DNA from: Candidatus Parcubacteria bacterium | GTDB taxonomy: Bacteria; Patescibacteriota; Minisyncoccia; Phycocordibacterales; JAACPR01 | NCBI GenBank assembly: GCA_039805545.1 | Contig: JBDLUA010000001.1 | Location: 566-64,565, forward strand | Direction of reading: 5' to 3' | DNA: 64,000 nucleotides | In this document: positions 28,318 to 59,721 of the stretch, one piece after another | Position numbering within the stretch: position 1 is the first letter of the stretch | Layout of the letters: every line of letters begins with the position of its first letter | Notes under the pieces: generated by a model | Database searches by the model: none | Told to the model about the DNA's origin: nothing | The model's input: only the letters and a program-made list of their open reading frames with translations | Position numbers and translations under genes: made by a program

Positions 28318-28355
28318 ACCATTTTTAATCCTAACTCTCCCAAAAAATTTTGCAA

Positions 28356-32225: not shown

Positions 32226-32269
32226 AGTATTTTGATTATTAGCCTGATAATTGTGTGCGTATTTTAAAT

Positions 32270-32833: not shown

Positions 32834-32870
32834 GTTGAAATTAAGTTAGTGTGCTGAGTTGTCATTCCTG

Positions 32871-32994
32871 CGTAGGCAGGAATCCAGGATCACTGTAAGA
32901 AGTAGTAAGATAAAAATCTAAACCATTTCTTTATATTTCTTGTTTCGTACCTGGATCCCCGCCTTCGCGGGGATGACGTGCTAATAAAACAGGG
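32871..32994. mobile_element. composite double-hairpin palindromic repeat (~125 bp), inverted copy of 27968-28090, between rpsI and grpE
   Basis: GTCATTCCTGCGTAGGCAGGAATCCAGG ... CCTGGATCCCCGCCTTCGCGGGGATGACGTGCTAA, with a conserved internal spacer (AAACCATTTCTTTA...). Confidence 0.75.
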
Positions 32995-32995
32995 A

Positions 32996-33415: not shown

Positions 33416-33749
33416 TAATCTTTAGTTTTTTAATCATTTCTGCTCGAAGTCGATTCTTTGGAAGCATTCCCATGATGGCCTTTCGATATACTTCAGCAAC
33501 ACCTCGCTTTGCGATCATTTGATCCATTGATCGAGTTTTAAGACCACTTGGATATCCTGTAAACCATTTGTATTCTTTTTCATCTTTCTTCTTGTCTGAA
33601 ATATCAGCCTTTGAAGCATTGATGATATGAACTCCTTCTGTAGTAACCTTGTTAGGTTCGTACATTGGTGAGTCTTTACCCATAAGAATCATTGCTGCTT
33701 CTTGAGCTATTCGACCGATTTTTTTGTTTGTTGCGTCAATTGTTTTCAT
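33408..33749 (-). CDS. rplM: 50S ribosomal protein L13
   Basis: L13 core (…YRKAIMGMLPKNRLRAEMIKKLKI) overlapping rpsI by 8 nt. It is shorter than typical L13, so the start may be a non-ATG codon upstream. Confidence 0.8.
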   Translation of the reverse strand: MKTIDATNKKIGRIAQEAAMILMGKDSPMYEPNKVTTEGVHIINASKADISDKKKDEKEYKWFTGYPSGLKTRSMDQMIAKRGVAEVYRKAIMGMLPKNRLRAEMIKKLKISE

Positions 33750-33760
33750 GTTTGATTCTA

Positions 33761-34111
33761 TTATGCTACAAATTCGATATAAGCCATTTTACTTCCGTCA
33801 CTCTTTCGTGGTTCCATCTTCACGATTCGTGTGTATCCTCCGTTTCGGTCTTGCATGTTTGAAGCAATTGATTCGAGTTCTCGTGCTACATCAAAACTTC
33901 CAGTTTGTGATTGGATAACCCGCTTTGTATGTAGATCACTTGTTTTTGATTTAGTAACAAGCTTTTCGATCATTGGTCGAAGTTCCTTTGCTTTTGCTTC
34001 GGTAGTTACAATTCGCTTATATTTTACAAGGTTGTACACCAAACCATTCATCAAAGCATTTCTTTGAGTTTTGGTTCGTCCGAATTTTCGTTTTGTATTG
34101 TGGTGTCTCAT
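33761..34111 (-). CDS. rplQ: 50S ribosomal protein L17
   Basis: MRHHNTKRKFGRTKTQRNALMNGL matches the L17 N-terminus. Confidence 0.9.
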   Translation of the reverse strand: MRHHNTKRKFGRTKTQRNALMNGLVYNLVKYKRIVTTEAKAKELRPMIEKLVTKSKTSDLHTKRVIQSQTGSFDVARELESIASNMQDRNGGYTRIVKMEPRKSDGSKMAYIEFVA

Positions 34112-34157
34112 GGCCTTATAGATTAATATAATTTAAGTATTTTGTAAAGATTGGGTA

Positions 34158-35114
34158 TTAGTCTTTGAGTTCGATTCCGTGTTTTGCAAGAAGTTCTTTG
34201 ATTTCTTCAAGTCCTTTGTTGCCAAACCCTTCGATTTCGAGGATATCAGCAGACTTCTTTCGTGCAAGACCTCCTACTGTTCGGATGTTTGCGTTTGAAA
34301 GTGCATTAATTGTTCGTGCTGAAAGTTCGAGATCTTCGATTCGTGTTTTAAGAAAATCTTCAACATCGATTTCTTCTTTTATATCAGATTCGATTGTTGC
34401 TGATTGCATAGGAAGCTCTACTTCTTCTTTGAATCCAACAACTGCTTTGAGTTGTGTAATCATTGTTGAAATTGATCGTTCAAGTGCTTCTTTTGGAGTG
34501 ATTGTTCCGTCTGTTTCGATAGTAAGTCGAAGTCGGTTGTAATCTGTTCGATCACCTACTCGCATGTTTTCTGATTCGTAGTTTACTCGTCGAATTGGAG
34601 TAAAGATTGCATCAAGTGCAATTGTTCCTACTTCTACTTTATCTTTGTGAAGCATTTCTTTTGGTACAAAACCAATTCCATTCTCCACTTTGATTTCCAT
34701 TTTTACTTCTGTCTTTGTTGTAATTTCAAAAAGCTCAAGATCTTTGTTGATGATCTCAATTTGTGATGGAACATTGATGTCTGCTGCAGTTACTTTCTTT
34801 GGTCCTTTTACATTAAGTTCAACTTTCATTGGTTCGTGATTGTCCATTGTAAGTCGAATTTTCTTAAGGTTAAGAATGATAGAGATAACATCTTCTTTTA
34901 CACCTTCAATTGTTGAGAATTCATGTCCTACACCTTCGATTTTAACTTCTGTTACAGCTGTTCCTGGAAGTGAAGAAAGAATAATTCGTCGGAGTGAGTT
35001 TCCAAGTGTGTGACCGTATCCTGGGTAAAGTCCATCAATTTCGTAAATACCCTTGAAGTTTTCTTCAGATACAATCTTTGGCTTTGATGGAATGGCAATG
35101 TTTTGTTCGATCAT
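34158..35114 (-). CDS. rpoA: DNA-directed RNA polymerase subunit alpha
   Basis: N-terminal dimerisation domain and C-terminal alpha-CTD (…TVGGLARKKSADILEIEGFG). Confidence 0.9.
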   Translation of the reverse strand: MIEQNIAIPSKPKIVSEENFKGIYEIDGLYPGYGHTLGNSLRRIILSSLPGTAVTEVKIEGVGHEFSTIEGVKEDVISIILNLKKIRLTMDNHEPMKVELNVKGPKKVTAADINVPSQIEIINKDLELFEITTKTEVKMEIKVENGIGFVPKEMLHKDKVEVGTIALDAIFTPIRRVNYESENMRVGDRTDYNRLRLTIETDGTITPKEALERSISTMITQLKAVVGFKEEVELPMQSATIESDIKEEIDVEDFLKTRIEDLELSARTINALSNANIRTVGGLARKKSADILEIEGFGNKGLEEIKELLAKHGIELKD

Positions 35115-35135
35115 AATATTTTATGTTACTTAAAA

Positions 35136-35744
35136 TTATTTTTTGTAATATTCCATTACTGAGTTCAAATCGAAATGCAATTCTTGCGGTACATATGTGG
35201 CCTCACCAGTTATTTTTACTGATAAGTCTTTTGCATTTACTTTAAGCCATGCGGGTGTGTTTGCTTCGTTGAGAGATTTTTCTGCGTTTTCAAAGAGTTT
35301 CTTTGATTTACTTCCCTCTCGCACAGCAATCACATCGTCTTTTTTGACTGCATAAGAAGGAATATTTACTCGAACACCATTTACAGTGAAGTGTCCGTGA
35401 GATACAGCTTGTCGAGCCATAAGTCGTGATTTTACAAATCCTGATTTAAGAACTACGTTATCAAGTCGATTTTCGAGAAGTTTAAAGAGAAGGTCTGATT
35501 GACCAGTTTTTGAAGTTTCAATTACTTTCTTTACGTAATTTTTTAGTTGTTTTTCAACGATACAGTATGTGAATCGTACTTTTTGTTTTTCAATAAGTTG
35601 TTGTCCGAATACAGAAGAAGGTCTTTTTTGTCGAAGATTTTTTGTCTTCTTTTGTTCATTCAAAGAGAACTTAGCTGTTTGTGTTTTTTCAAACACTGCA
35701 GATCCAAGTCTTCGAGCGATTTTATATTTTGGTCCTATATGCAT
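35136..35744 (-). CDS. rpsD: 30S ribosomal protein S4
   Basis: S4 N-terminus and S4 RNA-binding domain (RLDNVVLKSGFVKSRLMARQAVSHGH). Confidence 0.9.
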   Translation of the reverse strand: MHIGPKYKIARRLGSAVFEKTQTAKFSLNEQKKTKNLRQKRPSSVFGQQLIEKQKVRFTYCIVEKQLKNYVKKVIETSKTGQSDLLFKLLENRLDNVVLKSGFVKSRLMARQAVSHGHFTVNGVRVNIPSYAVKKDDVIAVREGSKSKKLFENAEKSLNEANTPAWLKVNAKDLSVKITGEATYVPQELHFDLNSVMEYYKK

Positions 35745-35768
35745 AACTCAATCTTTATAAATTAATAA

Positions 35769-36197
35769 TTAAACTCGTCTAGGCTTAGGCGGTTTTGGTC
35801 CGTTGTGAGGTACAGGAGTTCTATCTTTGATAGATTTGATAGCAATTCCCTTTGAGATAAAACCTCGAATTGAAGATTCTCGGCCTGATCCTACACCTTT
35901 TACGATAACATCTACCTCTTTTAATCCAAGCTTCTCTGCTTTTTCTGCAAGCTCTTCAGCTGCTTTTGAAGCGGCAAAAGGAGTACCTTTTTTGGCACCC
36001 TTGAATCCAAGTGCTCCTGATGAAGCTGCACAGATAGCGTTTCCTTTTGTATCTGTAAGAAGAAGCTTTGTGTTGTTAAAAGTTGATTGCACGTACAAAA
36101 TACCTGCATCAAGCTTTTTTCTTGGAAGCTTCTTTCCTGCTCCTGATTTTACAGAAGAGTCATTAGATCCTTTTTTTACGATTCGTTTTTTTCCCAT
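35769..36197 (-). CDS. rpsK: 30S ribosomal protein S11
   Basis: GILYVQSTFNNTKLLLTD...GALGFKGAKKGTPFAA. Confidence 0.9.
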   Translation of the reverse strand: MGKKRIVKKGSNDSSVKSGAGKKLPRKKLDAGILYVQSTFNNTKLLLTDTKGNAICAASSGALGFKGAKKGTPFAASKAAEELAEKAEKLGLKEVDVIVKGVGSGRESSIRGFISKGIAIKSIKDRTPVPHNGPKPPKPRRV

Positions 36198-36203
36198 ACT
36201 ATT

Positions 36204-36584
36204 TTATTTCTTGTCTACGGTTTTTCGTCCTGAACCCATAGTCTTTCGAACATTACCTCGTACTGTTCGAGAGTTTGTTTTGGTTCGTTGACCTCGTGCT
36301 GGTAATTTTCGACTGTGTCGTGTTCCTCTGTAAGCAGAAATATCTTTCAATCGTTTGATATTTGAAGAAATTTCTCGCTTAAGTTCTCCTTCAATTTTAA
36401 TTTTTTCAATAACTTCTCGAATTTTGTTTTCATCATCAGCTGACAAATCAGTTGCTTTTTTTGTTGACTCAATACCAACTTTTGAAAGTATAGACTTTGC
36501 TCGCGCTCGTCCAATACCATAAATAGCTGTAAGTGCAAACTCAAGCTGCTTGTCATCTGGAATTGTTATACCCTGTATTCTCAT
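36204..36584 (-). CDS. rpsM: 30S ribosomal protein S13
   Basis: MRIQGITIPDDKQLEFALTAIYGIGRARAKSIL. Confidence 0.9.
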   Translation of the reverse strand: MRIQGITIPDDKQLEFALTAIYGIGRARAKSILSKVGIESTKKATDLSADDENKIREVIEKIKIEGELKREISSNIKRLKDISAYRGTRHSRKLPARGQRTKTNSRTVRGNVRKTMGSGRKTVDKK

Positions 36585-36644
36585 TGAATTCTCTTTTTTG
36601 TTAGATGCCTAGTGTATCAAAAGAAACCTTTGTTGTAAAGGGTG

Positions 36645-36854
36645 TTATAACCGTTTTACGATTCTTGCCTTGCCACCATATGGATCTTCGAGGACCTCTA
36701 CAGTATCTCCCACCAAAACTCGAATTTTGTGCATTCTCATTTTGCCCGAAAGATACGCAATTGTTTCTTTTTCTCCTCCAATTAAGATTCGAAAAAGCGT
36801 GTTAGGCATTGCTTCAATTACTGTTCCTTTTACCGTTTCTTCTTTACTTTGCAT
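36645..36854 (-). CDS. infA: translation initiation factor IF-1
   Basis: S1-like OB fold (GTVIEAMPNTLFRILIGGEKETIAYLSGKMRMHKIRVLVGDTV). Confidence 0.9.
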   Translation of the reverse strand: MQSKEETVKGTVIEAMPNTLFRILIGGEKETIAYLSGKMRMHKIRVLVGDTVEVLEDPYGGKARIVKRL

Positions 36855-36889
36855 TTCAAATTTGTATCAATATTTAAGGCTTATGTCAA

Positions 36890-38233
36890 TTATTCCTGAA
36901 TAATAACTTCGATTTTTGAAGGGTCTTCTGGGAATGAGGACTTCCAAAATGGTTTAAGCTCTGCTTTTGCGTTTTCAAAAGATGAGTATCCATCGATAAT
37001 TTTTGCAATTTCACTTCGTTTTTTACCGGCAAAGTCTTTTTGAAGCTTTTCAGACTCAGTTGCATATGTAATAAGGCTTGTTCCTGACACTTTTATACCA
37101 TCTTCTCCTATGAGAAATGCGAGTTTTGAAGTATCAAGGGTAAATGTGTCCGTAGTAGACGCTCCACTAATTGAGTTCTGACCAATAAAGTTAGAAAGAT
37201 CTTTTTTTACAAAAGAATACGCATCTACTCGTGCAGTAAGTGTAAGTACTACTGAGTCTCCTTGTGCCTTATCTTGGAGTTCTCCAAATGAGAGTGTACT
37301 CATATCTGGAACAAGCACATACTCAGTTGATTGGTTTTGATCTTGTGAGAATTGATTTTGTAGATCTTGCTCAAGGTCTTTTCGAGCTTGTTCTTTGGCT
37401 TCATCTGATACTACTTTTTGAATACCAATATATCCACCCGTGATATCTCCTATGTTTTCGGCAGTAATCTTGTCGAATTGTTCTTTTCCTGAAAATCCTG
37501 GAATTGTAAATTTAACTTGTCCTGAAGTGTTGTAATCCTCTCCTGCACTGTCAGCAAATACTTCAACATCAAGTGTTCCTGGTACCATTGTTCCTCCGTT
37601 CATTGTATATCCTGGTATTACAATCGAATCTCTGATTCGATAAATAAGTCCGTTTGGAGCTTGGAATCGAGTGTTCTTTACAAGTTCTTGTGGAGCATCC
37701 TTGTGTTTGTTTGTGATTCTTATCTTTCCACTTGCTTGTTTTTCTACTTGTTGCTCGCCTGTTGCAGGAAGAGTCTTGCTTGCTGACTTTGAAAGTTGAG
37801 TCTTTGTTGCCAGTTTGTTTGTTCCATCTGTTGGAATTACAATCGCAACCTCTGCAGTTGTCTTCTTTGGTGTAATTGTGATCTTTGCATCAGTTTGACC
37901 TATAAGAATTGCAAAAAAGATAAGAACACCGATACCAACGGCCATTATAATTTTTTTTGAGCCAGACTTTTTTCTTTTGTGAGGCTTTCGAGGAGCTTCG
38001 TATTCTTCCTCTTCTTCAACTTCTTCTCTTTGATATGCGTGAGGCTCAGGTGCTCTTTGTGGTTCTTCATATGAAGAATATGTAGGAGTTTCAAAAACTT
38101 CTTCTTGAGGTTCTACATCTCGCATCTTTGGTTTTCGAGGTGTTCGTACTTCTTTATGGTTTGGAAGTGGAATATCTCGTATTGATCGTTTTGAACTTGA
38201 TGGAACTACATCTTGTAAGAAATTCTTTTTCAT
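36890..38233 (-). CDS. hypothetical bitopic membrane protein (acidic cytoplasmic N-terminus, one TM, large extracytoplasmic domain)
   Basis: 447 aa. TM helix IIMAVGIGVLIFFAILIG lies after about 95 charged residues. No catalytic motifs. Confidence 0.45.
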   Translation of the reverse strand: MKKNFLQDVVPSSSKRSIRDIPLPNHKEVRTPRKPKMRDVEPQEEVFETPTYSSYEEPQRAPEPHAYQREEVEEEEEYEAPRKPHKRKKSGSKKIIMAVGIGVLIFFAILIGQTDAKITITPKKTTAEVAIVIPTDGTNKLATKTQLSKSASKTLPATGEQQVEKQASGKIRITNKHKDAPQELVKNTRFQAPNGLIYRIRDSIVIPGYTMNGGTMVPGTLDVEVFADSAGEDYNTSGQVKFTIPGFSGKEQFDKITAENIGDITGGYIGIQKVVSDEAKEQARKDLEQDLQNQFSQDQNQSTEYVLVPDMSTLSFGELQDKAQGDSVVLTLTARVDAYSFVKKDLSNFIGQNSISGASTTDTFTLDTSKLAFLIGEDGIKVSGTSLITYATESEKLQKDFAGKKRSEIAKIIDGYSSFENAKAELKPFWKSSFPEDPSKIEVIIQE

Positions 38234-38248
38234 ATCGTGTATGCAACT

Positions 38249-39382
38249 TTAAATTAATGCCTCTAATGTTAAATCTAACTCAATTTCTCCTATCGGAGTC
38301 TTGTAGGTAATTATATCTTTTAACAAAGAGATATCAAAATTAATTATTCTATGGTTTTTGAGGTTCATCTGAGCATTATTTTGCAATGTTTTTGAAAGAA
38401 TCTCGGTAAAAAAGCTCACAACCTTTGGATTTGAGAGTACTAAAAACTTGTGTGGGACATGAGTTCCAAAATATTGAAGAGTTTGAATTACAGAATTCCC
38501 CCATGATTGCATTACCGTATCTAGTTGTACTTGAGATTGTGGAGATTTAATAAGAACTTCTTTTTGATAGAGTAAATCATACTCATATGACTTAATATTT
38601 GTTTGTAGTGCCCGAAGAAAGTCGTGAATACCAATTGGGAATGTTGCAAATTGCACAAGTGCATCATCTTGAATAATTCCAACCTCAGTAATCTCCCCAC
38701 TTACATACACAAAGACAAGATTATCCTCCTTAATCATAAACCGTGTTGTGTTCTCAACAATAGTCATAGGACTTGTTTTGCAATGAGCAGTTTTAGATTC
38801 TGGAAAATACTGTTTAAGAATATCTTTGAGCATTGAGTATGTGTCTTTTGCTATAAAACTTGAATACACATCAATTTGAACATGAGAACATCGAGTATTT
38901 TCAATGTGTGTAATTGTGTATCCGTTTGTTTGAATCTTTGTAATACATTTTTCGAGTACATAGAGCTTATCATCGGCAGGAATCTTTTTAAGTTCTTGTT
39001 CTATAAAATCATCATTAAGTACAATTTCATTTTCAAAATTTAAAGAATCAATTCGTGATGTGAACCAAGGAGTGTGGAGAATAAACACTATAGTGCACGG
39101 GTTATTTTGAATTATTTGTTTGATAGAGGTGTGGTTTTTTTCAAAAGCAGCTTTAAGCTCTTTGATATAAGTGTTGGTATATAGTTTTGGATCTTGAGAG
39201 TTTTGTAAAAAAAGAATATTGCGTTCAACAAACAACACTTCCCTCTTATTGTTTGGAAGAACCTTAATTAATTGAAAATCAATAGAAGAACTTTTTAAAG
39301 AAATGTGTAATGAGTATGTAAAAGTATTCTTAGGTTTTAAGAAAGGCATAGGAGTATTATAGCATAGAACATTTATAAACAA
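38249..39382 (-). CDS. hypothetical protein
   Basis: 377-aa ORF with no motifs recognised. Confidence 0.4.
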   Translation of the reverse strand: MFINVLCYNTPMPFLKPKNTFTYSLHISLKSSSIDFQLIKVLPNNKREVLFVERNILFLQNSQDPKLYTNTYIKELKAAFEKNHTSIKQIIQNNPCTIVFILHTPWFTSRIDSLNFENEIVLNDDFIEQELKKIPADDKLYVLEKCITKIQTNGYTITHIENTRCSHVQIDVYSSFIAKDTYSMLKDILKQYFPESKTAHCKTSPMTIVENTTRFMIKEDNLVFVYVSGEITEVGIIQDDALVQFATFPIGIHDFLRALQTNIKSYEYDLLYQKEVLIKSPQSQVQLDTVMQSWGNSVIQTLQYFGTHVPHKFLVLSNPKVVSFFTEILSKTLQNNAQMNLKNHRIINFDISLLKDIITYKTPIGEIELDLTLEALI

Positions 39383-39384
39383 TT

Positions 39385-39879
39385 CTATTTCTTTACCTTT
39401 TTTGCCATATCGTTTGCAATTTCAGTACAAACCCCAATATTTTTCACACCCTCATTCATTAATTCAAAAACCAATCTATAGAAAGAAGGGAGTTGTTTTT
39501 TTATTTCGCTATTTATTTTCTTTCTGTCTTCTTTTAATAATTTATGAAAAATCTTTTTTCTTAGTAAATTAAATTGTTTTAGTTCATCCAGTAATTGTTT
39601 GTTTTTGTTATATCGTTCAAGTCTTACAATTAGTTCACCCAAAGGAGTTTCCTTATCTTTTTTATCTTCAAATTTAAGATTATATTGCTTAAGTGCTAGA
39701 GATACTGCAATTTCTTGACACTCAATTGCATATTTTATTTTGTCTTCTACTTCAAGTGCATAATATAAAAAAGCTTCCACATAAAATTCATTCAATAACA
39801 GCGTTTTCAATCTCTCTCCGAATGGGTGTAGTTCTTTATTTTTACTATATATTGCAAAAATACTCAAAGTGTTATCCAT
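39385..39879 (-). CDS. hypothetical protein
   Basis: 164-aa, K/E-rich, predicted helical. Confidence 0.4.
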   Translation of the reverse strand: MDNTLSIFAIYSKNKELHPFGERLKTLLLNEFYVEAFLYYALEVEDKIKYAIECQEIAVSLALKQYNLKFEDKKDKETPLGELIVRLERYNKNKQLLDELKQFNLLRKKIFHKLLKEDRKKINSEIKKQLPSFYRLVFELMNEGVKNIGVCTEIANDMAKKVKK

Positions 39880-39884
39880 AAATC

Positions 39885-41657
39885 CTACCCCAACACCCCC
39901 TTAATCCTCCTAACCCCCGCACTCGAACTTTCTTCTTTCAGAATTTTAAAATGTCCGAGGGTTCCTGTGTGTGTCACATGAGGACCCATACAAATCTCAG
40001 TACTAAATGCGCCAGTTGGTGAACCGATTTGATATACAGATACTTTGTCTGAGTATTTGTCAGTGAAGAGTCCGATAGCATTCATCTTCTTTGCTTCGTC
40101 ATAGGTTGTATCGTATCGAGTTACAGGCAAATCCTGTACAATAATCTCGTTTACTTTATCCTCAACTTCTTTAACTTCCTCTGGTGTAAGTGCACGAGTA
40201 AATGAGAAGTCGAATCGCATTCGCTCTGTATTGATATTACTTCCCTTTTGTTCAACAGTTGTTCCGAACATATTTCGAAGTACGGTGTGAAGAATGTGTG
40301 TTGTGGTGTGATACTTGGTTTCTATTTCTGAGTTTCCTGCAAGTCCACCCTTAAACATACCTGCTGAGGCAGTCTTGGATGCTTGTTTGTGTTGCTCGAT
40401 TTCTTTATTGATTTCGTCTTTGTTGTATGAAATCTTTTTTTCATCTAATAATTCGTATGTGAGTTCAAGTGGAAACCCGTATGTCGTATAGAGATTAAAA
40501 ATATCTTTTGAAGAAAATTCTCCGGCAATCATTTTTTCAAAATTCTTCATTCCTGACGAGAGAGTCTTTTGGAATTTTTCTATTTCTTTGATTAATTCTG
40601 TTTGAATGAAGTCCTTTGCGGATGTGAGATTGTATACTGATTCATAAATTTCAAAAATCTTTGTTGTTGCCTCTTGTACATTATCTACAGACAATCCAAG
40701 TACATCAGCAAATCGATATAATCGTCGAATCAATCTTCGAAGTACATATCCTTGTGCAGTATTAGATGGTGCAACTTGTTCACTCAGTATAAGCACCGAT
40801 GTTCGAAGGTGATCAGATACAATTCGAAGTGCTCGAACATCTTGATTCTTCGCATGTTCTTTAAGATATGTGTATACAGGAGAAAATAAATCAGTATCAA
40901 ACACACAATCAACTCCTTGTGATGCCATTACCACTCGCTCAAGTCCTCCTCCAAAGTCTACATTTTGTTGTGCGAGATTCTCTAGGCCTTGTGCTGTTTT
41001 GTTATGAAGCATAAACACCGTGTTCCCTACTTCTACAAGTTTTTGATCTGCATCTGCTTGTTCAAATTGTTCGAGTGTAAGGTCACCAAGGTCTTCGTTT
41101 GAAACATTGTAAAAGATTTCACTATCTGGACCACATGGACCAATCTCTCCTGTTGACCACCAGTTTCCAGGAAGAAAAAGAATTCTCTCCTTAGGAATTC
41201 CGAGCTCCATCCAATATGATGCAGTCTCTTCATCCTTTGGAACAAGATCATTTCCAGAAAAACATGTGATGTATGCTTTGTTAATATCAAAATTAAATCC
41301 TTTGTCGGTGAAATATAATTCGTAACTTGTTTGTACACCAGCCCGCTTGATTGCACCAAATTCTTGTGCACTCTCTGCTCCAAGATACCAGTATCCAATC
41401 ATTTCAAAAAAAGTATCGTGCGTTTTGTCTCCAATCTCATCAATATCTTGTGTTCGAATACATTTTTGAATGTTTGTGATTTTGTTTCCAAGCGGATGCT
41501 TTTCTCCTTTGATATATGGAACAAGTGGTTGTACTCCTGCAGTTGTGAAAAGTACTGATGGATCATTAGTTGGAACAAGTGATGCAGAGTCAACAAGAGC
41601 GAATCCCTTGTTTTGCATAAAAGTCTTTATATTGTCTCGTATTTGAGTGTGTTTCAT
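39885..41657 (-). CDS. alaS: alanyl-tRNA synthetase (short form lacking the C-terminal domain)
   Basis: AlaRS catalytic N-terminus (SASLVPTNDPSVLFTTAGVQP) and editing-domain HxxxH motif (HTTTHILH). It is 590 aa versus about 870 typical. Confidence 0.85.
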   Translation of the reverse strand: MKHTQIRDNIKTFMQNKGFALVDSASLVPTNDPSVLFTTAGVQPLVPYIKGEKHPLGNKITNIQKCIRTQDIDEIGDKTHDTFFEMIGYWYLGAESAQEFGAIKRAGVQTSYELYFTDKGFNFDINKAYITCFSGNDLVPKDEETASYWMELGIPKERILFLPGNWWSTGEIGPCGPDSEIFYNVSNEDLGDLTLEQFEQADADQKLVEVGNTVFMLHNKTAQGLENLAQQNVDFGGGLERVVMASQGVDCVFDTDLFSPVYTYLKEHAKNQDVRALRIVSDHLRTSVLILSEQVAPSNTAQGYVLRRLIRRLYRFADVLGLSVDNVQEATTKIFEIYESVYNLTSAKDFIQTELIKEIEKFQKTLSSGMKNFEKMIAGEFSSKDIFNLYTTYGFPLELTYELLDEKKISYNKDEINKEIEQHKQASKTASAGMFKGGLAGNSEIETKYHTTTHILHTVLRNMFGTTVEQKGSNINTERMRFDFSFTRALTPEEVKEVEDKVNEIIVQDLPVTRYDTTYDEAKKMNAIGLFTDKYSDKVSVYQIGSPTGAFSTEICMGPHVTHTGTLGHFKILKEESSSAGVRRIKGVLG

Positions 41658-42986: not shown

Positions 42987-43028
42987 ATGGAGAATTATAG
43001 CACAAAGACCGAAGAGAATGTGAAATAG

Positions 43029-43056
43029 TTGACAGATATTTTAAATAGTGTATAAT
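43029..43056 (+). promoter_or_regulatory. consensus sigma70-type promoter driving candidate sRNA
   Basis: TTGACA (43029-43034), 16 nt, TATAAT (43051-43056). Confidence 0.55.
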
Positions 43057-43062
43057 GCATTC

Positions 43063-43280
43063 CATACATGTCCTTCCAAGACCGAGGAAGAGGGCTGACG
43101 GATGGTTAGTCCATCTGAAATACTCTTCGTGAGATTGCGTAAGCTTTTCACAAAAGAGAGCATGTGAGGCAGATGAGAGCAGTCACCGACTCTGCCAGCA
43201 GGGAGGCTTTCGCAAGGATTGGTCATCTCCCTCAAATCCCGCCGCGCACCAGTAGGCCACTGGTGCGCGGTATTTTCTTT
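43063..43280 (+). ncRNA. candidate structured small RNA (~220 nt, class undetermined)
   Basis: GC-rich island between a perfect promoter and an intrinsic terminator (CGCGCACCAG-TAGGCC-ACTGGTGCGCG plus a U-tract at 43243-43280). The 5' GAGGGCUGAC can pair with 3' GUCAUCUCCCUC (long-range closing helix). It also contains a GC-GUAA-GC GNRA hairpin. Overlapping minus ORFs are not protein-like. Confidence 0.45.
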
Positions 43281-44363
43281 TTAATACAGAATTTTCTCCA
43301 CCACTCCACCTCCCACGCAGTGCTCACCTTGGTATAAAACCGCAGACTGTCCTTGTGCAATAAATGTAGGGAGTTCCTTATCAAATACAATTCGTGTTGA
43401 TTTATCTTCGAATACAAGTGTTCCTTTGAGGGGCTTTTGTCTATATCTAAATTGAACTTGTATATCTGTTTTATTTTCTACTAATGTATGAAAAATCGTG
43501 TCGGCAAGTTCTACTTCTTTTATAAATGGTGCTACTGAACCCACAATAAGTTTATTATTTTTAATGTCCTTATCGATTACAAACAATACTTCATCATTTG
43601 TATTCTTGTATTCTGGTGAAATAGAAAATCCATGTCTCTCACCTATTGTGTATAACTCAACTCCTTCATGAGTTCCAATCTCTGTTCCATTAAGCGTGTG
43701 CACTGTTCCTGGTTTTGTGGTGATAAGTTTTTTGAGAAAAGTTTTCATGTCAACAGGTCCGATAAAGCAAAGTCCTTGTGAATCTTTTTTTTCTGCGGTA
43801 AACAAACCATGTGCTTCGGCAATCTTTCGTACTTCACTTTTTTCTAAATGTCCTATTGGAAACAAGATGTGTTCAAATTTTTCTGTAGAAACATTCCAAA
43901 TAAAATAACTTTGATCTTTGTTTGTATCATGTCCTCGATAGAGCTGTGAGGCTTTATTTTGAGCGTAGTGCCCTGTTGCGACTGCATCGAAGCCATTTCT
44001 CATTGCAAAGTCATAGATAAAGCCAAACTTAATATGTGTATTACACATTACATCGGGATTTGGTGTTCGACCCGCTTGATATTCACTCATCATATAGTCA
44101 GCAACATGCTGTTTGTATTCAACTTCGAGATTTAAAAAATGAAATGGAATCTCGAGCTTGGCACATACTCGCATTGCGTCTTTCATTTCATCTCGCCATG
44201 TACATTCAACAAAGTCAGGTTGCCACACCTTTGCAAAGACACCTTCTACTTGATAGCTGGCTTTTTTGAGTAATATCGCAGCAACAGAAGAATCAACCCC
44301 GCCCGAGATACCGACGAGAACTTTTTTATTCTTGTGTAAAGTATTTATCTTTGTTTGCTTCAT
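43281..44363 (-). CDS. mnmA: tRNA-specific 2-thiouridylase MnmA
   Basis: PP-loop SGGVDSSVAA and conserved MnmA catalytic Cys region. Confidence 0.9.
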   Translation of the reverse strand: MKQTKINTLHKNKKVLVGISGGVDSSVAAILLKKASYQVEGVFAKVWQPDFVECTWRDEMKDAMRVCAKLEIPFHFLNLEVEYKQHVADYMMSEYQAGRTPNPDVMCNTHIKFGFIYDFAMRNGFDAVATGHYAQNKASQLYRGHDTNKDQSYFIWNVSTEKFEHILFPIGHLEKSEVRKIAEAHGLFTAEKKDSQGLCFIGPVDMKTFLKKLITTKPGTVHTLNGTEIGTHEGVELYTIGERHGFSISPEYKNTNDEVLFVIDKDIKNNKLIVGSVAPFIKEVELADTIFHTLVENKTDIQVQFRYRQKPLKGTLVFEDKSTRIVFDKELPTFIAQGQSAVLYQGEHCVGGGVVEKILY

Positions 44364-47704: not shown

Positions 47705-50278
47705 TTACCCTTTAATAACGAAACTCACCAATTTTTGAGGAACATAAATTTCTTTAACAATCTCTTTACCTTCTATCCATCGAAGTACTTCAGGATTTGA
47801 TTTTGCTTGAGCAAGAATTTCTTCTTTTGAAAGATTTGGATCAACTTCAAGTACTGTTCGCGTCTTTCCGTTCACTTGAACGGCAATTTTGAGCTTCTGA
47901 TCGGCAAGTATAGATACATCAGGGGTACTAAATAATTGATTGTAAATCAAATCACTCTCTCCTATTGATGACCAGATCTCTTGTGCAAGGTGTGGCGCAT
48001 ATGTTTCAAATACTACTAAGAATTTTTTGAATGTATCTTTTGAAAATTCTGTTTTTTCCAAAGAATTAATACATACCATTAATTTAGAAAGGCCTGTATT
48101 AAATTTAAGTTGTTCAAAATCAGTTGTGATTTGTGAAAGAAGTGTGTTTATTGCAACAAGTGCCTCTTTTGAATCTTGCGTGGAAACTTTTTCTACAAGT
48201 GAATACACTCGTTCAAAGAATCTTCGAATTCCAACTACACCGTTTGGATCCCATGGATAATTTCCTGCTTCTCCATATGGCCCCATAAATGCAAGATATG
48301 CACGCACCACATCAGCGCCAACTCGTTCCACTACTTCATCAGGATTAATTACATTTCCTTTTGACTTACTCATCTTATCTCCATCTGTCCCAAGAATAAG
48401 TCCTCTGTTATTTCTCTTATTAAAAGGTTCTGATTGCGGAACAATTCCAAGGTCATACATTACTTTGTATACAAATCGTGCATACAATAAGTGTCGTGTA
48501 GTATGTTCACTTCCTCCAGAATAAAAATCAATCGGAAGCCATGTCTTCTTTGCTTGTTCTGAGGCAATTTCTGTATCATTCTTAGGATCAATGTATCGTG
48601 TGTAATACCAACTTGAATCAACAAATGTATCAAGAGTATCTGTCTCTCGCTCTGCTTTGCTGCCACATTGAGGACAAGATGCCTCTACCCACTCATGATT
48701 GTGTGCAAGTGGAGACTTACCGTCATCTCGCATTTCGATCTTATCCATATCAGGAAGAACAACAGGAAGCTGATCCTCAGGTACAGGAATAGTTCCACAA
48801 GATGTACAATGAATCATCGGAATAGGACAACCCCAATATCGTTGCCGTGATACTGACCAATCTTGAAGTTTGTATGTTGTTGTCTTTTCTCCGTATTTTG
48901 ATGTGATAGCATCTTTGGCTTGTTCTGATGTAAGTCCGTTGAATTCTCCGGAGTTAAAGATTAGAGCATTATCGCCTACAAAAGGTTTCTTTCCATTTAG
49001 ATAATCTTCATTGAGTTTTGTTAGTTCTTCAGTAGAATCAAAATCTTTGTTAAAAGAACCATCAACCCTAATAACATTTGGCCGTAAAACAACTTTAATC
49101 TCTAAATTATATTTTTGAGCAAATTCAAAATCTCTATCATCATGTGCAGGTACTGCCATTACACACCCTGTTCCGTATGTTGCGATTACATAATCAGAAA
49201 TAAACACAGGAATTTCTCTTCCTGTCGCTGGATGAAGTGCTTTGATTCCTTTAAGTTCAACCCCTGTCTTATCTTTGTTTGTTTGTCTATCAAGATCAGT
49301 TTTTTTATTTGTTTGATCAATATAGGTTTGAACTTCTGACCAATTTGAAATAGATGGTTTTAATGTTTGAACAAGATCGTGTTCTGGCGCAACAACAACA
49401 TAAGTAACACCCATAAATGTATCTGGTCGTGTAGTGAAGACTTTTATTTGAAGGTTACCTTGTGCATTAGTGAAGTCTGCAAGCGGAGTTTGGTGATCCT
49501 GGATCCTCGCCTCCGCGAGGATGACGTCATTGGGAGCAGGGATGACACCACCCGTTCCTTTAATATCGAATGTAAAAAAAGTTCCATGGCTTCGTCCAAT
49601 CCAATTCTTTTGTGCTTCTTTGATGTGATGGGGCCAATTAAGAGAATCAAGATCATCGATAAGTCTATCTGCATACTTTGTAATCTCGATATTCCATTGT
49701 TTCATTTCTTTTTGTTCAACGGCGCTACTGCATCGTTCACATACTCCACCTTCGAGTTGTTCATTTGCAAGAACAGTTTTACAAGAAGGACACCAATTCA
49801 CATGAGTTTGCTCGTGCTTTACTAATCCTTTTTTATAAAATTGAAGAAACAACCATTGCGTCCATTTATAATATTCTGGATCAGATGTAACAACCTTGGT
49901 ATCCCAGTCAATCATTGTTCCCATACTCTTTACCTGTTCAATCATCTTTTCGATATTCGAATAGGTCCAAGTCTTAGGATTAAGGCCTCGCTTGATAGCG
50001 GCGTTCTCAGCAGGAAGACCAAAAGAATCAAAACCAAATGGAAATAGCACATCTTTACCAAGATGGTGCATATATCGCGCAAAAATATCAGTCACGGCAA
50101 AGGCATACCAATGCCCTACATGAAGATCTCCTGAAGGATACGGAAATTCTACAAGGAGATATGATTTATCTTTTGGATTTGGATTTGTTTTGAAAAGGTT
50201 TTTTGATTCCCATTCTTTTTGCCATTTAGATTCGATTTCTTTATGATTGTAGTCTTTCATATGTAGTGATGATACCAC
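47705..50278 (-). CDS. leuS: leucyl-tRNA synthetase carrying an in-frame palindromic repeat insertion
   Basis: HVGHWYAF (HIGH) and KMSKSKGN motifs and the CP1 editing domain. The repeat at 49494-49530 encodes NDVILAEARIQD in-frame. Confidence 0.95.
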   Translation of the reverse strand: MVSSLHMKDYNHKEIESKWQKEWESKNLFKTNPNPKDKSYLLVEFPYPSGDLHVGHWYAFAVTDIFARYMHHLGKDVLFPFGFDSFGLPAENAAIKRGLNPKTWTYSNIEKMIEQVKSMGTMIDWDTKVVTSDPEYYKWTQWLFLQFYKKGLVKHEQTHVNWCPSCKTVLANEQLEGGVCERCSSAVEQKEMKQWNIEITKYADRLIDDLDSLNWPHHIKEAQKNWIGRSHGTFFTFDIKGTGGVIPAPNDVILAEARIQDHQTPLADFTNAQGNLQIKVFTTRPDTFMGVTYVVVAPEHDLVQTLKPSISNWSEVQTYIDQTNKKTDLDRQTNKDKTGVELKGIKALHPATGREIPVFISDYVIATYGTGCVMAVPAHDDRDFEFAQKYNLEIKVVLRPNVIRVDGSFNKDFDSTEELTKLNEDYLNGKKPFVGDNALIFNSGEFNGLTSEQAKDAITSKYGEKTTTYKLQDWSVSRQRYWGCPIPMIHCTSCGTIPVPEDQLPVVLPDMDKIEMRDDGKSPLAHNHEWVEASCPQCGSKAERETDTLDTFVDSSWYYTRYIDPKNDTEIASEQAKKTWLPIDFYSGGSEHTTRHLLYARFVYKVMYDLGIVPQSEPFNKRNNRGLILGTDGDKMSKSKGNVINPDEVVERVGADVVRAYLAFMGPYGEAGNYPWDPNGVVGIRRFFERVYSLVEKVSTQDSKEALVAINTLLSQITTDFEQLKFNTGLSKLMVCINSLEKTEFSKDTFKKFLVVFETYAPHLAQEIWSSIGESDLIYNQLFSTPDVSILADQKLKIAVQVNGKTRTVLEVDPNLSKEEILAQAKSNPEVLRWIEGKEIVKEIYVPQKLVSFVIKG
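49494..49530. repeat. palindromic repeat element, in-frame inside leuS
   Basis: TGATCCTGGATCCTCGCCTCCGCGAGGATGACGTCAT. It is a perfect match to the cysS copy over the core. Confidence 0.8.
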
Positions 50279-52165: not shown

Positions 52166-52240
52166 GAGATCCTCGCCTCCGCGAGGATGACGAAAAATAT
52201 AGTCCCCCTCGTCTTCACGAGGGTCCTTGTTTTTCGTCAC
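52166..52240. mobile_element. variant palindromic repeat element (core palindrome plus a second CCCTCG/CGAGGG hairpin, flanked by short inverted repeats GACGAAAAA / TTTTTCGTC)
   Basis: GATCCTCGCCTCCGCGAGGATGACG at 52166-52192. TCCCCCTCGTCTTCACGAGGGTCC at 52203-52226. Confidence 0.65.
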
Positions 52241-56487: not shown

Positions 56488-58377
56488 CTAATCTTTCCAT
56501 TTTTCAAGTAAGTTTATAGTTTGACTTATTGGCTGATTCTTCTTACTTTTAATTTCACCAACTTTCACAACAACTGGGATTTGAGCCAATAAACCTGCAA
56601 TTATACAAGTCCCTCTAGCAAGATTAGGTATAGAATCAGCAGAAACTTTATCTAAATATGCGATTGTTTTTTCGACCGCAAACAAATCATTATTGTTAAT
56701 TAGTCTATGTAAAAAATAATTATGAAGTTGAGATATAATTGTTGATGATATGTCCGAAGGTCTTTGACTTGAAATAGTTAGAAAAGTATCAAACTTACGA
56801 CCCTCTTTTATAATTTCTTCAAAGGTTTCGAGACGGTAATCTTTCCATTGTTCGCTCTCTCTTTCTGAATTAGAAGACAGTATATTATGCGCTTCATCAA
56901 TAATTAGATGAAGAGAGCTTTCATTGTTCTTGCTTTTCTTTTTTGTATCATAAAGTTCCTTTGATATAAGAAGAGGGAGCATCTTTCTTATGTCGAGATT
57001 CACATCTTTCAGTGAGATCACTGTTAAATTCTTTGTAAATCTAACCCCTCCTTTTACATAGAGAACCTTTTCTAAATCAAGTACTCTTTTTTCCATTCTT
57101 TTGATTAGAGGAGATAAATGTTCCCTATTTGAAAATCCTCTAATCATTTCATCATAATATTTAACGATGATTCTTAATCCAATTTTTTTAATCTCAGATA
57201 AATTTGAAATGTTCAGATCTCTGACCAAACTTATTTGATCATTTATTTTTTCTTTAAATGCAGGCTTATCGCTAAAAATCTTATCATTAGGTGAAGACTG
57301 ACTAGTTTTTAAATAAAAACTGATGTTATCATTTCCTCCTGAAAGATTTTCCTTAAAATAATGTCCCATCTTTCGCAAACTATCATTATTCAGAAAAGAT
57401 GCTAGTTCATATAACAAATCTACCGTAAGAGCCCTATCTGTATTTTTCCCACTTACCGCTGTAGCTTCAATAATTTTTTCTGCAACCAAATTCTTAAAAT
57501 TTTCTTCTGTATTCAATCTAGATTCAATATAGGAATCCTTAATAGCTCTATTTATAAAAGGGATTTGAGTTTTTTCTGTTGCTTCAAGAAAAATGCCCCA
57601 AAAGGAACTATCTTTTAAGGTTTCTTTTTTAATTGGGAATTTGTCTCCTTCTGTCACTAAATCTGTTGAAAGTTTATATATATTTTTATATTTTTTCTCG
57701 ATAATAACATCATCACCAGCATATTCTCCATTAAAATCAATAAAGAAAAATTTTGCTCGATTTTTGAAGTTTGTATTATCTTTAAATTTTTTAAAAAGTT
57801 CTCGATATAATTTTGTAAGTGTGTAGGATTTTCCACTTCCAGTATTACCAAAAATTCCTATATGACTAGCGAACAAACTATTGATTCCTAAATCAATAGT
57901 TTGTCCATCATCATATTCCAATGTTCCTATCGAAATTCTTTCATCTCCTTCTTTAATAAAATTATGTATTTCTTCAAACTCTTCTTTTCTTAGTAAAAAA
58001 CATTTATTATCTATGAGAGGGAGTTCCTTGATCCCCCTGTAAAACACACTATTTTCGATAAAACCAAGAATTTTTATACTAAGAATTCTGTTTATCTTCT
58101 CCTGATTGTTTCGATACTTATTTTTTGAAAAATCCTTATCCTCTGTAATCGATTCTCCTTCAATTTTCCCAATCATTTCAGAAAAACCCTTCTTTATCTT
58201 TATGTACCCACCTACGGAGATGTTTTGAATAAGAGCACCTTTATAGAGAACTGAGGATGTATTTTTACCCTTATCAACTTTTACTTTAATAATTTGTCCT
58301 TCAACAGAAAAAACTACCCCTATTCTAAAAATTGAATTATCAACAATATAAGTATCGGTCGTATTATGGTTATTCAT
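56488..58377 (-). CDS. herA: HerA-like (FtsK/HerA superfamily) ATPase, partner of SIR2 in a SIR2-HerA defense pair
   Basis: Walker A GIFGNTGSGKSYTL and Walker B LHLIIDEAHN. It is about 630 aa and overlaps the upstream SIR2 gene by 8 nt. Confidence 0.7.
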   Translation of the reverse strand: MNNHNTTDTYIVDNSIFRIGVVFSVEGQIIKVKVDKGKNTSSVLYKGALIQNISVGGYIKIKKGFSEMIGKIEGESITEDKDFSKNKYRNNQEKINRILSIKILGFIENSVFYRGIKELPLIDNKCFLLRKEEFEEIHNFIKEGDERISIGTLEYDDGQTIDLGINSLFASHIGIFGNTGSGKSYTLTKLYRELFKKFKDNTNFKNRAKFFFIDFNGEYAGDDVIIEKKYKNIYKLSTDLVTEGDKFPIKKETLKDSSFWGIFLEATEKTQIPFINRAIKDSYIESRLNTEENFKNLVAEKIIEATAVSGKNTDRALTVDLLYELASFLNNDSLRKMGHYFKENLSGGNDNISFYLKTSQSSPNDKIFSDKPAFKEKINDQISLVRDLNISNLSEIKKIGLRIIVKYYDEMIRGFSNREHLSPLIKRMEKRVLDLEKVLYVKGGVRFTKNLTVISLKDVNLDIRKMLPLLISKELYDTKKKSKNNESSLHLIIDEAHNILSSNSERESEQWKDYRLETFEEIIKEGRKFDTFLTISSQRPSDISSTIISQLHNYFLHRLINNNDLFAVEKTIAYLDKVSADSIPNLARGTCIIAGLLAQIPVVVKVGEIKSKKNQPISQTINLLEKWKD

Positions 58378-59455
58378 CTATTTCAGGTATTAAAGGAGGT
58401 TTTAATGCAAAACACTCATCTCCAGTGATAGTAATTTTCTCAAATATCTCAGTATTCAAAGTCTCAAAGTTATACTTTTTTCCTTCTTCGGGAAGAATAA
58501 TTTTTATATTCTTATTTTTTGCGCTTTCTTCCATTTTTTGATAAATATCACTTTTTGTTTCATGAGCAAAAATATAAACTTTTAATGTTGGATTAGAACC
58601 AGCAACTCTCATAGTTAAATCTCGTATGTGCTCATCCTCAAAGGAAAAACCCATTACGAACAGAACACTGTTTTCCTTTTCTAACTCATTTGAATAAATT
58701 CTTAATAAATCATAATAGTACTGTCCAAGTAAAGTTACTTCGAATTTCTCTTTTGTAGGATTAACGATATTAAGATCCTTGTACTTTTCTTCAAACTGAA
58801 TAGTGTTTTTATAATTTTCAATCTCTTTTACGAGATCAAGATCTTTATCAAGATATATTAGATCTTTATTGTTTCCCTTTGTAAATTTCCAGGTTAAAGA
58901 TCCATGAATTTTTAATATATTAAACACAGGAATTTCAGATGTATTTTCATAATGAAGACTTTTCTTGAAGTAAGATTTTTTAAAATTTCCAAGATCAAAT
59001 ATTGGATTAAATCTACCATTAAACCCATCATTAAATTCAACACCAGTCTCTTCGATTGCCTTTTCTGAGAAAATATCAATATTTGTAGTGAAAATATTAA
59101 CTTGTTTTGTAAGTAAGGAATTTTCTCTCCTCAAAACAATATTGTTCAAGAGTCTGTAAAAGTTTCTGTAATTATCTAGCACAATATCCTTATTTGAATC
59201 CACATCTCCATTTAATATTTTTAAGTTACCCAACATCACAACATCAAAAAATTCTTTTTTCTTCTCCAAAATTTCTTCAGGGGTTTTTGTCTTATCAGAA
59301 AGAAAAACTTCAATTCCATTTAACACATTAAGGAAGGGTCTAGAAAGACCTGAGCCAAACAAGAAGTTAATGTTTGCACTGTCTATTGTTTTTCGGATTT
59401 CTCCGATTAGGGCTGTCTGATTAGGCATAAAAAGATTATGCAATATTTTTTTCAT
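58370..59455 (-). CDS. SIR2-family (sirtuin-like NADase) protein of a SIR2-HerA defense pair
   Basis: FLFGSGLS (GAGIS-like), FTTNIDIF (TQNID-like) and KIHGSL (catalytic HG) motifs. Confidence 0.7.
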   Translation of the reverse strand: MKKILHNLFMPNQTALIGEIRKTIDSANINFLFGSGLSRPFLNVLNGIEVFLSDKTKTPEEILEKKKEFFDVVMLGNLKILNGDVDSNKDIVLDNYRNFYRLLNNIVLRRENSLLTKQVNIFTTNIDIFSEKAIEETGVEFNDGFNGRFNPIFDLGNFKKSYFKKSLHYENTSEIPVFNILKIHGSLTWKFTKGNNKDLIYLDKDLDLVKEIENYKNTIQFEEKYKDLNIVNPTKEKFEVTLLGQYYYDLLRIYSNELEKENSVLFVMGFSFEDEHIRDLTMRVAGSNPTLKVYIFAHETKSDIYQKMEESAKNKNIKIILPEEGKKYNFETLNTEIFEKITITGDECFALKPPLIPEIDE

Positions 59456-59593
59456 TTTTTCAATATGGATATTTGTTTCTAAAACGCCTAAATAAGAATT
59501 CCCTTTTAAAACTAATGTGTTAAAATATGAAAGACAACCGAATATTCCGAAGACCTAACCCTACTAAAGCAATTTACTAGGTATGGTCAAAAT

Positions 59594-59636
59594 CGCGTTC
59601 AACATAAAAAACCCATCATTTAGGGCGTTGAACGCG
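59594..59636. promoter_or_regulatory. perfect 10-bp dyad CGCGTTCAAC-N23-GTTGAACGCG in the divergent intergenic region, a candidate operator
   Basis: It lies between the SIR2 start (59455) and the plus-strand operon start (59722). Confidence 0.3.
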
Positions 59637-59721
59637 TTGCATCGGGAAACTGATGTAGGGGTCCTCGGACTCTCCTAGTGGTGGGCTTTTTGTTTACTAC
59701 TAGGACAATTGATTTCATTTT

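Follow-up and report, generated by a model that had tools for sequence, protein, structure and literature searches.

Repetitive extragenic palindromes (REPs) of the CGTC-1 family, as defined by Di Nocera, De Gregorio & Rocco 2013 (PMC3733652), combine a CGTC or TGTC head with an 8-bp stem that has a complementary A-T start, a loop of 4 nt and a CCA tail. The same paper describes the tag as unpaired and reading CGTC, TGTC or CCTC, equates the family with dRS3 of Neisseria and RPE-6 of Rickettsia conorii, and states that CGTC REPs come without a dedicated transposase. The published peptides of intragenic copies are VIPAKAGI, SFPRKRES, CHSRRSGNP, DSRFCRND and WIPAFVRMT, and the in-frame hosts include the glycyl- and isoleucyl-tRNA synthetases of Erythrobacter litoralis (PMC3733652). 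The NTS motif (CGTCATTCCCGCGMAVGCGGGAATCYRG) and the broader Ssn-related motifs (SRM) were defined by Chenal et al. 2025 (PMC11893778). According to that study, the Neisseria GIY-YIG nuclease SsnA binds its single-stranded motif, cleaves a few nucleotides upstream and thereby limits the integration of transforming DNA, while the ssnA genes associated with SRM encode small single-domain GIY-YIG proteins (cd10448) and are often flanked by the motif (PMC11893778). Here we analyzed a repeat of this architecture in a 64,000-nt stretch of the genome of a Candidatus Parcubacteria bacterium, a member of the candidate phyla radiation (CPR), where a complete copy is read in frame within leuS, the gene for leucyl-tRNA synthetase (LeuRS). 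The whole stretch is referred to below as the window.

Judged by its sequence, the leuS element is a hairpin of the CGTC-1 REP or NTS-SRM type and belongs to a known, pan-bacterial family rather than to a new kind of element; every CGTC-1 feature that can be read at this level is present. What is new is the host group, the CPR; in-frame copies, those in synthetases included, have already been published. The locus as a whole is best explained, and in our view very probably, as a resident CGTC-1 REP copy lying within an old mosaic cassette of leuS that was most likely moved by recombination and is read through as a protein loop.

The leuS hairpin and its copies in the window

The genome has a GC content of 36%, and the window has a coding share of 91%. 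Its leuS gene (47705-50278, minus strand) encodes 857 aa from a GTG codon, with Met7 at 50260 as the probable start, and the closest match of the product is a LeuRS from a Candidatus Parcubacteria bacterium (P0001, encoded at locus L001). An earlier, sequence-only reading of the window had reported a palindrome at 49494-49530, in frame near residue 250 of LeuRS, and we verified both its position and its frame. The 37-mer TGATCCTGGATCCTCGCCTCCGCGAGGATGACGTCAT occupies these positions on the plus strand and occurs once in the window at ≤3 mismatches, where shuffles lead one to expect 0, and the minus strand of leuS reads AAT GAC GTC ATC CTC GCG GAG GCG AGG ATC CAG GAT, giving NDVILAEARIQD at LeuRS residues 250 to 261. 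Identity to a copy in cysS, which had been put at 27 bp, is real and extends over a longer run of 31 nt (49497-49527 = 4550-4580). A partial half-site, GGGATGAC, had also been pointed out; it is present at 49539-49546 and belongs to a second REP copy, of which the head and the 5' stem arm are left. The 20-nt core ATCCTCGCCTCCGCGAGGAT has 6 matches in the window at ≤3 mismatches compared with 0.00 expected, with further variants at 28064 and 32861. The element is a genuine dispersed repeat rather than a chance palindrome. The census of the window came to 8 complete copies, 1 decayed copy and 2 half copies (0 expected), and 6 of the 8 complete copies are intergenic. These features are as follows.

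49498-49526, minus strand: complete CGTC-1 REP/SRM-like hairpin in leuS, encoding (D)VILAEARIQ; head CGTC at 49523-49526, arms at 49515-49522 and 49503-49510, loop GGAG at 49511-49514, tail CCAGG at 49498-49502
49536-49547, minus strand: truncated older REP copy TGTCATCCCTGC (head and 5' arm) in leuS, encoding GVIPA
4551-4579, minus strand: in-frame REP copy in cysS (ORF 4199-5587), encoding RHPRGGEDP at residues 337-345 in a frame that differs from that in leuS
13966-13994, minus strand: intergenic REP with loop GAAG, downstream of a VTT-domain gene
14598-14625, minus strand: decayed REP-like remnant TGTCATCCCGGGCTTGAGCCGGAATC, adjoining the 3' end of the open reading frame (ORF) at 14627-15940
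27969-28087: composite element of ~120 nt, with hairpins at 27969-27998 (plus strand) and 28059-28087 (minus strand), heads outward, and an AT-rich spacer of ~60 nt
32861-32978: second composite, in the rpsI-grpE spacer, with hairpins at 32861-32888 (plus strand) and 32950-32978 (minus strand), 88 to 94% identical to the first
52169-52192, minus strand: intergenic REP with a diverged tail; a related, weaker hairpin lies next to it at 52206-52223

On the tag-first strand, the consensus of the unit is (TTAGY)A-CGTC-ATCCYYGC-GNAG-GCRRGGAT-CCAGG. We aligned 12 copies, the stems of which amount to 96 pair cells. GTCAT is invariant among them, the head is CGTC in 8 and TGTC in 4, and all 12 have a 4-nt loop that reads GGAG, GAAG or GTAG. 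The tail is CCA in 10 of the 12, the exceptions being CAA (27969-27998) and CTC (52169). Stem pairs 1 and 2 are AU and UA in every aligned copy, which amounts to an A-T/T-A start throughout, and standard pairing was found in 96/96 stem cells, with double-sided changes at 3 pairs (12 cells); none of 500 shuffles reached the observed values. The stem variants are CCTCGC/GCGAGG, CCCCGC/GCGGGG, CCCTGC/GCAGGG and TCCTGC/GCAGGA, and the first of these, with five copies, is the majority stem of the window genome. For the leuS copy, the hairpin coincides with the predicted fold, an 8-bp stem closed by a 4-nt loop, at −8.7 kcal/mol as DNA and −14.3 kcal/mol as RNA. Rfam searches at gathering thresholds gave no match at any REP copy, the leuS site included. 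A likeness to type I-E CRISPR repeats was considered and dropped, as there is no array, the copies are dispersed and all CGTC-REP features fit.

The repeat has the head, stem, loop and tail of CGTC-1 and shares with it a multicopy, chiefly intergenic distribution with some copies in frame, a frequent occurrence in pairs (the published spacers are 20 to 100 bp) and in-frame peptides of the same types, VIPAxAGI and RxxRxGxxP (PMC3733652). Unlike the described CGTC-1 and SRM hosts, the organism studied here belongs to the CPR; no CPR host is named in those portions of the text of PMC3733652 and PMC11893778 that were available to us. Compared with CGTC-1, the majority stem CCTCGC/GCGAGG and a head that is often lengthened to TTAGYACGTC are peculiar to the window. 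Pairs in the window have their tagged ends outward, are heterodimers with different stems and keep a conserved spacer of ~60 nt, whereas CGTC-1 dimers are described as tending, though not by definition, to be head-to-head and mostly homodimers, with the reservation that the head/tail convention of that description may differ from "outward" as used here (PMC3733652). The architecture also matches that of NTS and SRM (compare CGTCATTCCCGCGMAVGCGGGAATCYRG of NTS, PMC11893778, with CGTCATCCTCGCGGAGGCGAGGATCCAG, a copy from the window), and the family is enriched over shuffles in the window. When the window was searched with the published SRM pattern, HGTCWYN(0-2)YYVSBRHN(0-5)WNVSBRGN(0-2)RNCYNB (PMC11893778), with 100 first-order Markov simulations of the window as the null, 3 strict and 5 relaxed hits were obtained, compared with 0.04 and 0.06 expected. 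Two of the strict hits are the complete copies at 13967 and 32951; the third, at 13919, spans a half copy and an inserted terminator hairpin and is not a complete REP.

There are further parallels with the Rickettsia palindromic elements (Ogata et al., cited in PMC3733652), which likewise place a GC-richer palindrome in frame in essential genes, at tolerant positions, of an AT-rich, reduced genome. The classic RPE-1 measures 100 to 150 bp, in contrast to a unit of ~29 to 35 bp within a 111-nt mosaic here, and, unlike with the Rickettsia elements, a single loop of LeuRS carries the repeat in several lineages, each time in a different state. The composites at 27969-28087 and 32861-32978 and a third one of hairpin, spacer and inverted hairpin in a relative's locus (L223), all ~120 nt and bounded by inverted hairpins, recall the NIMEs of Neisseria and the GTAG-REP doublets (REPINs, mobilized by RAYT). 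Unlike REPINs, they have no GTAG tag, and no RAYT gene is present among the window ORFs of at least 70 aa.

Scans of larger collections placed the hairpin motif in >120 loci of many phyla among the matches listed; in almost every one of these, the stem positions that the pattern left open are complementary. The hosts among these matches were alpha-, beta- and gamma-proteobacteria, Planctomycetes, Fibrobacter, Bacteroidota, Tisiphia and several CPR metagenome-assembled genomes. A contig scan with a pattern of 18 specified bases listed mostly matches in high-GC proteobacteria and few CPR loci. The exact CCTCGC variant, used for a metagenome scan, was found on contigs of 35 to 71% GC, and only L223 among the matches listed belonged to the lineage of the window.

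The composite at 27969-28087, which sits upstream of a class-Ib (Trp/Tyr-type) tRNA synthetase gene, is flipped in place in a sister strain (L250, 9900-10120; 97 to 99% identical), while the outer flanks are collinear. Because of this inversion in place, we regard the hairpin pairs as recombination substrates. The REP at 13966-13994 is paired with an inverted half copy at 13918-13926, and a terminator-like hairpin is inserted between them. This hairpin belongs to a second small repeat family (TTAGCAAAAGGCRGGCCCTTCGGGCCYGCCTTTTGCA), with copies at 1157-1193 and 13927-13963 that are 95% identical and show a compensatory stem change; the copy at 13927 lies within the REP pair 13897-14010, and weaker relatives were seen at 8235, 30286 and 53239.

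The unit is open in 5 of its 6 reading frames, and a stop occurs in a single frame. In the window, the five open frames give VILAEARIQ (leuS), RHPRGGEDP (cysS), SSSRRRGSR, LDPRLREDD and WILASARMT, which correspond to the intragenic CGTC-1 peptides published in PMC3733652. Because five of the six frames are open, the in-frame state requires no special mechanism. Copies are strongly depleted from coding DNA, which makes up 91% of the window but holds just 2 of the 8 complete copies (P = 1.4e-5), and the in-frame copies are cases of survivorship in permissive loops. The sequence-only reading had counted two aminoacyl-tRNA synthetases that carry the element in frame, and both leuS and cysS are indeed read through; it had proposed that the element tolerates or selects in-frame insertion, of which tolerance holds, while selection need not be assumed, since most frames are open and copies are depleted from coding sequence.

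In cysS, 66 nt stand in place of 54 nt of a relative (L242, 89% identical); the site is a variable loop, the net gain is 4 residues, and comparison with L242 revealed no target-site duplication. The same REP occupies the same place in P0125 (84% identical), a different version is found in P0130, and no REP is present in closer relatives. The element had been suggested to be active or recently active, and both intragenic copies are in fact absent from the nearest available relatives, L001 for leuS (97% identical in nucleotides) and L242 for cysS; because these closest relatives are without copies, both sites are polymorphic on a short time scale. Separately, the stretch 13897-13927 matches 4571-4601 at 30 of 31 positions, ~20 nt of which lie outside the REP core. 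In cysS, these ~20 nt encode KIKDFL, apparently a native segment of CysRS, and REP copies seem, from this match, to share or carry flanking sequence.

The leuS cassette and its history

The complete REP of leuS is one module of a longer mosaic, which runs from the truncated old REP TGTCATCCCTGC (GVIPA) through the complete copy at 49498-49526 to a tail of GATCAC plus 45 nt (DHQTPLADFTNAQGNLQ).

49448-49558, minus strand: whole mosaic cassette, 111 nt, LeuRS residues 241-277, in place of 5 codons (DSEEK)
49448-49497, minus strand: tail module, comprising GATCAC, which extends the REP tail and overlaps it by its last base (49498), and then 45 nt, DHQTPLADFTNAQGNLQ

By blastn, 119 nt of the window (49450-49568) stand opposite 23 nt of L001, and neither this comparison nor that at the codon level revealed a target-site duplication. 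The insertion site is the tip of a β-hairpin between the WIGRSxG and TTRPDT motifs, the latter of which lies in the editing domain. Thermus thermophilus LeuRS (1H3N, 2V0C) aligns on both sides and leaves a gap exactly at its G238-E240 turn, with no counterpart residues. We take this hairpin of the T. thermophilus structure to be part of the linker into the CP1 editing domain. In the AlphaFold2 model, the predicted local distance difference test score (pLDDT) is <50 for residues 251 to 267, which are flanked by confident strands at 229 to 241 and 275 to 282, and the end of the tail module is modeled in a β-strand (pLDDT ~79). According to this model, the translated cassette forms an unstructured surface loop; the tryptic peptides predicted from LeuRS with the cassette are GTGGVIPAPNDVILAEAR and IQDHQTPLADFTNAQGNLQIK. 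An intein or intron was rejected, as the insert is only 37 codons long, in frame and stop-free, has no Rfam match at the site and exists in graded loop versions in relatives.

Among 120 listed LeuRS homologs, ~100 had both flanking motifs. The loop measures 16 aa in 70 of these ~100 and is of the REP type in six (P0004, P0005, P0006, P0008, P0015 and P0016). P0001, with 97.3% nucleotide identity over leuS, has no cassette, and the next relative, P0002, has the same cassette-free loop. One clean REP, adding 10 aa, is found in P0008 and P0005; P0016 has a REP and a tail, P0006 the layout of the window (half-REP, REP and tail, the half copy reading GGT GTC ATC CAT GCA), and P0004 a more complex arrangement. 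The tail DHxxPxADFxNAQGNLQ is common to P0004, P0006 and P0016, alleles with which the window shares its tail module; the end of the window module joins the β-strand. At the DNA level, P0006, P0008 and P0016 have hairpins with different yet complementary stems, including one G·T pair in P0016, while the stem of P0005 is partly decayed and the arms of P0015 are split by ~45 nt inserted in the loop. Conservation of the segment in the LeuRS of unrelated taxa, which the sequence-only reading had named as an outcome fatal to it, is not observed: most relatives lack the segment and T. thermophilus has no counterpart. The cassette is nevertheless common to related Parcubacteria lineages. In a neighbor-joining tree computed without the loop, the cassette alleles, that of the window included, were scattered, each with a cassette-free sister. 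Identity between the window and P0006 is 77% over the cassette and 79% over the gene, in nucleotides; with a divergence on a par with that of the gene, the cassette dates back to when these lineages separated. As a separate variable feature of the gene, many related LeuRS (P0002 to P0008, P0016 and others; loci L245 to L248) are 940 to 980 aa long and contain an inserted NUDIX domain (PF00293), which is lacking in the window LeuRS and P0001.

Over the 84 nt upstream of the cassette, all 8 mismatches to P0001 fall within the 27 nt adjoining it, and downstream all 3 fall within the first 27 nt; the upstream flank has 2 mismatches to P0006 compared with 8 to P0001. Because the mismatches cluster within 27 nt of the cassette and the flank resembles a distant, cassette-bearing allele, these comparisons make it most likely that the window strain gained a patch of ~165 nt through homologous recombination, with an unsampled allele that bears the cassette as the donor, and not by fresh transposition. 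Within the cassette, the REP core has the majority stem of the genome, by which the usual PAEAG has become LAEAR (Pro to Leu, Gly to Arg). This substitution pattern suggests that the core has been homogenized with the resident copies.

Explanations weighed against each other

A resident REP copy within a recombined cassette, the explanation that we consider very probable, would operate as follows. The cassette would have reached the window strain as the ~165-nt patch, by homologous recombination from a cassette-bearing allele. The REP core would then be held as a perfect hairpin of the majority variant, either through gene conversion from other copies or through a constraint at the DNA level, and this upkeep would come at the price of the radical amino acid changes noted above. 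By analogy with Neisseria, the CGTC strand, when single-stranded, would be recognized by a partner, most likely a small GIY-YIG nuclease of the Ssn type that acts on single-stranded DNA. The repeats would thus serve as landmarks for recombination and cleavage and not as something that the synthetase needs.

Several points weigh against this explanation. The leuS and cysS copies match the SRM pattern only if the first loop base is relaxed, as they have G where H is required. The donor allele of the patch was not found among the sampled LeuRS homologs, and a patch from another lineage whose core is identical to resident copies at 31 of 31 positions would require either subsequent conversion or a donor whose REP population was the same. 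By hand comparison of codon strings, synonymous change exceeds nonsynonymous change in the tail module, and part of the cassette may be under protein-level constraint. Finally, among ORFs of at least 70 aa in the window, searched by regular expressions, Pfam and a small ad hoc GIY-YIG hidden Markov model, there is no GIY-YIG, RAYT/tyrosine-transposase or IS110-type gene, and an Ssn-type partner protein for this organism is a conjecture drawn from the Neisseria system.

The same three approaches found no GIY-YIG (Ssn) gene in the relatives' loci of this lineage. Unlike in the Neisseria NTS/SsnA system, then, no ssnA-like gene accompanies the motif within the 64 kb, and binding and cleavage would apply here only by analogy. 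Elsewhere, at the unrelated loci L045, L106 and L203, small single-domain GIY-YIG ORFs adjoin the hairpins. A weak, 81-aa GIY-YIG-like ORF was also seen in a Candidatus Moraniibacteriota locus (L054, 1800-2260), ~750 nt from a pair of CGTC-type hairpins and flanked by a partial tRNA gene duplication, possibly as a mobile GIY-YIG cassette of this CPR genome.

A more far-reaching version of recombination within leuS, which we put forward tentatively and consider improbable as it stands, is that REP cassettes are portable modules for protein loops. One ancestral insertion at the LeuRS β-hairpin turn would persist as a long-lived presence/absence polymorphism. Homologous recombination over short tracts would carry it from one Parcubacteria lineage to another, perhaps with the help of the hairpin or of an Ssn-type nuclease acting on incoming DNA, and its core would be overwritten repeatedly by the REP variant of each genome. 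Site-specific "homing" of REPs to this LeuRS codon position is less likely still.

The sequence-only reading had favored an active or recently active element. If such a palindrome of ~37 bp had newly transposed into leuS (and cysS) of the window strain a short time ago, this would indeed account for the absence of the cassette from a strain 97% identical in nucleotides and for a core of which 31 nt recur unchanged in the cysS copy and which is identical to other copies. The differing orientation of the composites in sister strains likewise shows the family to be dynamic. We nevertheless hold such an event to be unlikely. What leuS carries is a cassette of 111 nt in exchange for 5 codons, old and shared with lineages ~80% identical; the exchange of 119 nt for 23 nt is not a clean insertion and has no target-site duplication, half-REP, REP and tail follow each other in the same layout in P0006, at a divergence on a par with that of the gene, and the flank mismatches cluster beside the cassette and resemble a distant allele. 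In cysS, 66 nt for 54 nt is again no clean insertion, and P0125 already has the same copy. The target-site duplications that the earlier reading proposed to look for are absent at both genes. A miniature inverted-repeat or other cut-and-paste transposon was rejected on the same observations, namely the lack of a duplication at leuS or cysS, the sizes (119 versus 23 nt and 66 versus 54 nt) and the altered flanks.

No better placed, in our estimate, is an adaptive LeuRS insertion at the protein level, for example, one that creates a new surface near the editing domain, with the likeness to a DNA repeat being secondary. Change in the tail ADFxNAQGNLQ among the window, P0006 and P0016 is mostly synonymous by hand count, the end of this tail is modeled in a β-strand with a pLDDT of ~79, and loop length varies in many LeuRS, all of which would suit selection on the protein. 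Selection of this kind would hardly leave the arms perfectly complementary while the residues change as radically as from PAEAG to LAEAR. Moreover, the unit is also present between genes and, read in another frame, within cysS, close relatives and most homologs with an extracted loop do without the cassette, and the core region has a pLDDT of <50.

A role of the hairpin in the leuS mRNA, as a pause, stability element or processing site, appears very unlikely. REPs of other bacteria are thought to serve as RNA elements downstream of genes (PMC3733652), and the leuS hairpin would be stable as RNA, at the −14.3 kcal/mol given above. Against such a role, copies lie in both orientations relative to transcription, the same core occurs in noncoding DNA, the whole 119-nt segment folds no better than shuffles (z = −0.9) and sister strains have no hairpin in leuS. 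Misjoining of a repeat into leuS during assembly or binning is the least credible alternative: short GC-rich repeats can mislead assemblers, but the leuS reading frame is intact, window positions 26408-40749 were assembled at 100% identity from an independent sample (L249, a contig that does not reach leuS), the window CysRS is recorded unchanged in NCBI and JGI (P0121), and homologous cassettes exist in independent assemblies from other samples.

Implications and other features of the window

With this locus, CGTC/NTS-type repeats and their in-frame "decoration" of essential proteins are extended to the CPR and to tiny genomes. Repeats in CPR genomes have hardly been described, and a full-text literature search gave no relevant paper. 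For annotation, odd inserts of 10 to 40 residues in housekeeping proteins of the CPR are to be read as repeat-derived where they contain peptides such as VIPAxAGIQ, RHPRGGEDP or SSSRRRGSR; they should not be taken for functional motifs of a lineage, for errors of assembly or for inteins. The loop in leuS offers a compact natural system in which to study how a hairpin constraint on DNA overrides codon conservation, in what way indels travel between diverged strains on short recombination tracts, and whether nucleases of the Ssn type are present and at work in the CPR. The most interesting residue of the analysis is the recurrent, polymorphic occupation of one LeuRS loop.

Several features of the window stand apart from the repeat. 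A SIR2-like gene (58370-59455) lies beside a HerA/DUF87 ATPase gene (56488-58377), a pair that presumably resembles the SIR2-HerA anti-phage pair. Both genes are part of a stretch of 30% GC (56 to 64 kb) with many ORFs that have no family match, and just downstream of them Rfam placed a full-length LOOT RNA (RF03000) at 59552-59673 on the plus strand, at 72 bits compared with a gathering threshold of 46. A second Rfam match, to "Rickettsia sRNA47" at 7482-7605 on the minus strand (61.7 bits, gathering threshold 60), is antisense within an S41 peptidase ORF (6555-7784) and is probably a coding-sequence artifact. In GluRS (15921-17237, minus strand), the Pfam match of the catalytic domain falls into two stretches, which hints at an inserted segment; no REP core was seen there.

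Two islands vary between strains. At 39365-39890, the relatives at L001 and L251 have a TIR-domain gene, while the window has an ORF of 164 aa (39385-39879) of no known family; at 43009-43281, the window has 273 nt where relatives have ~1 kb with two small ORFs. The cumulative GC skew peaks near 18 kb (~17 to 20 kb), where gene orientation also switches, and this arrangement is compatible with a replication terminus.

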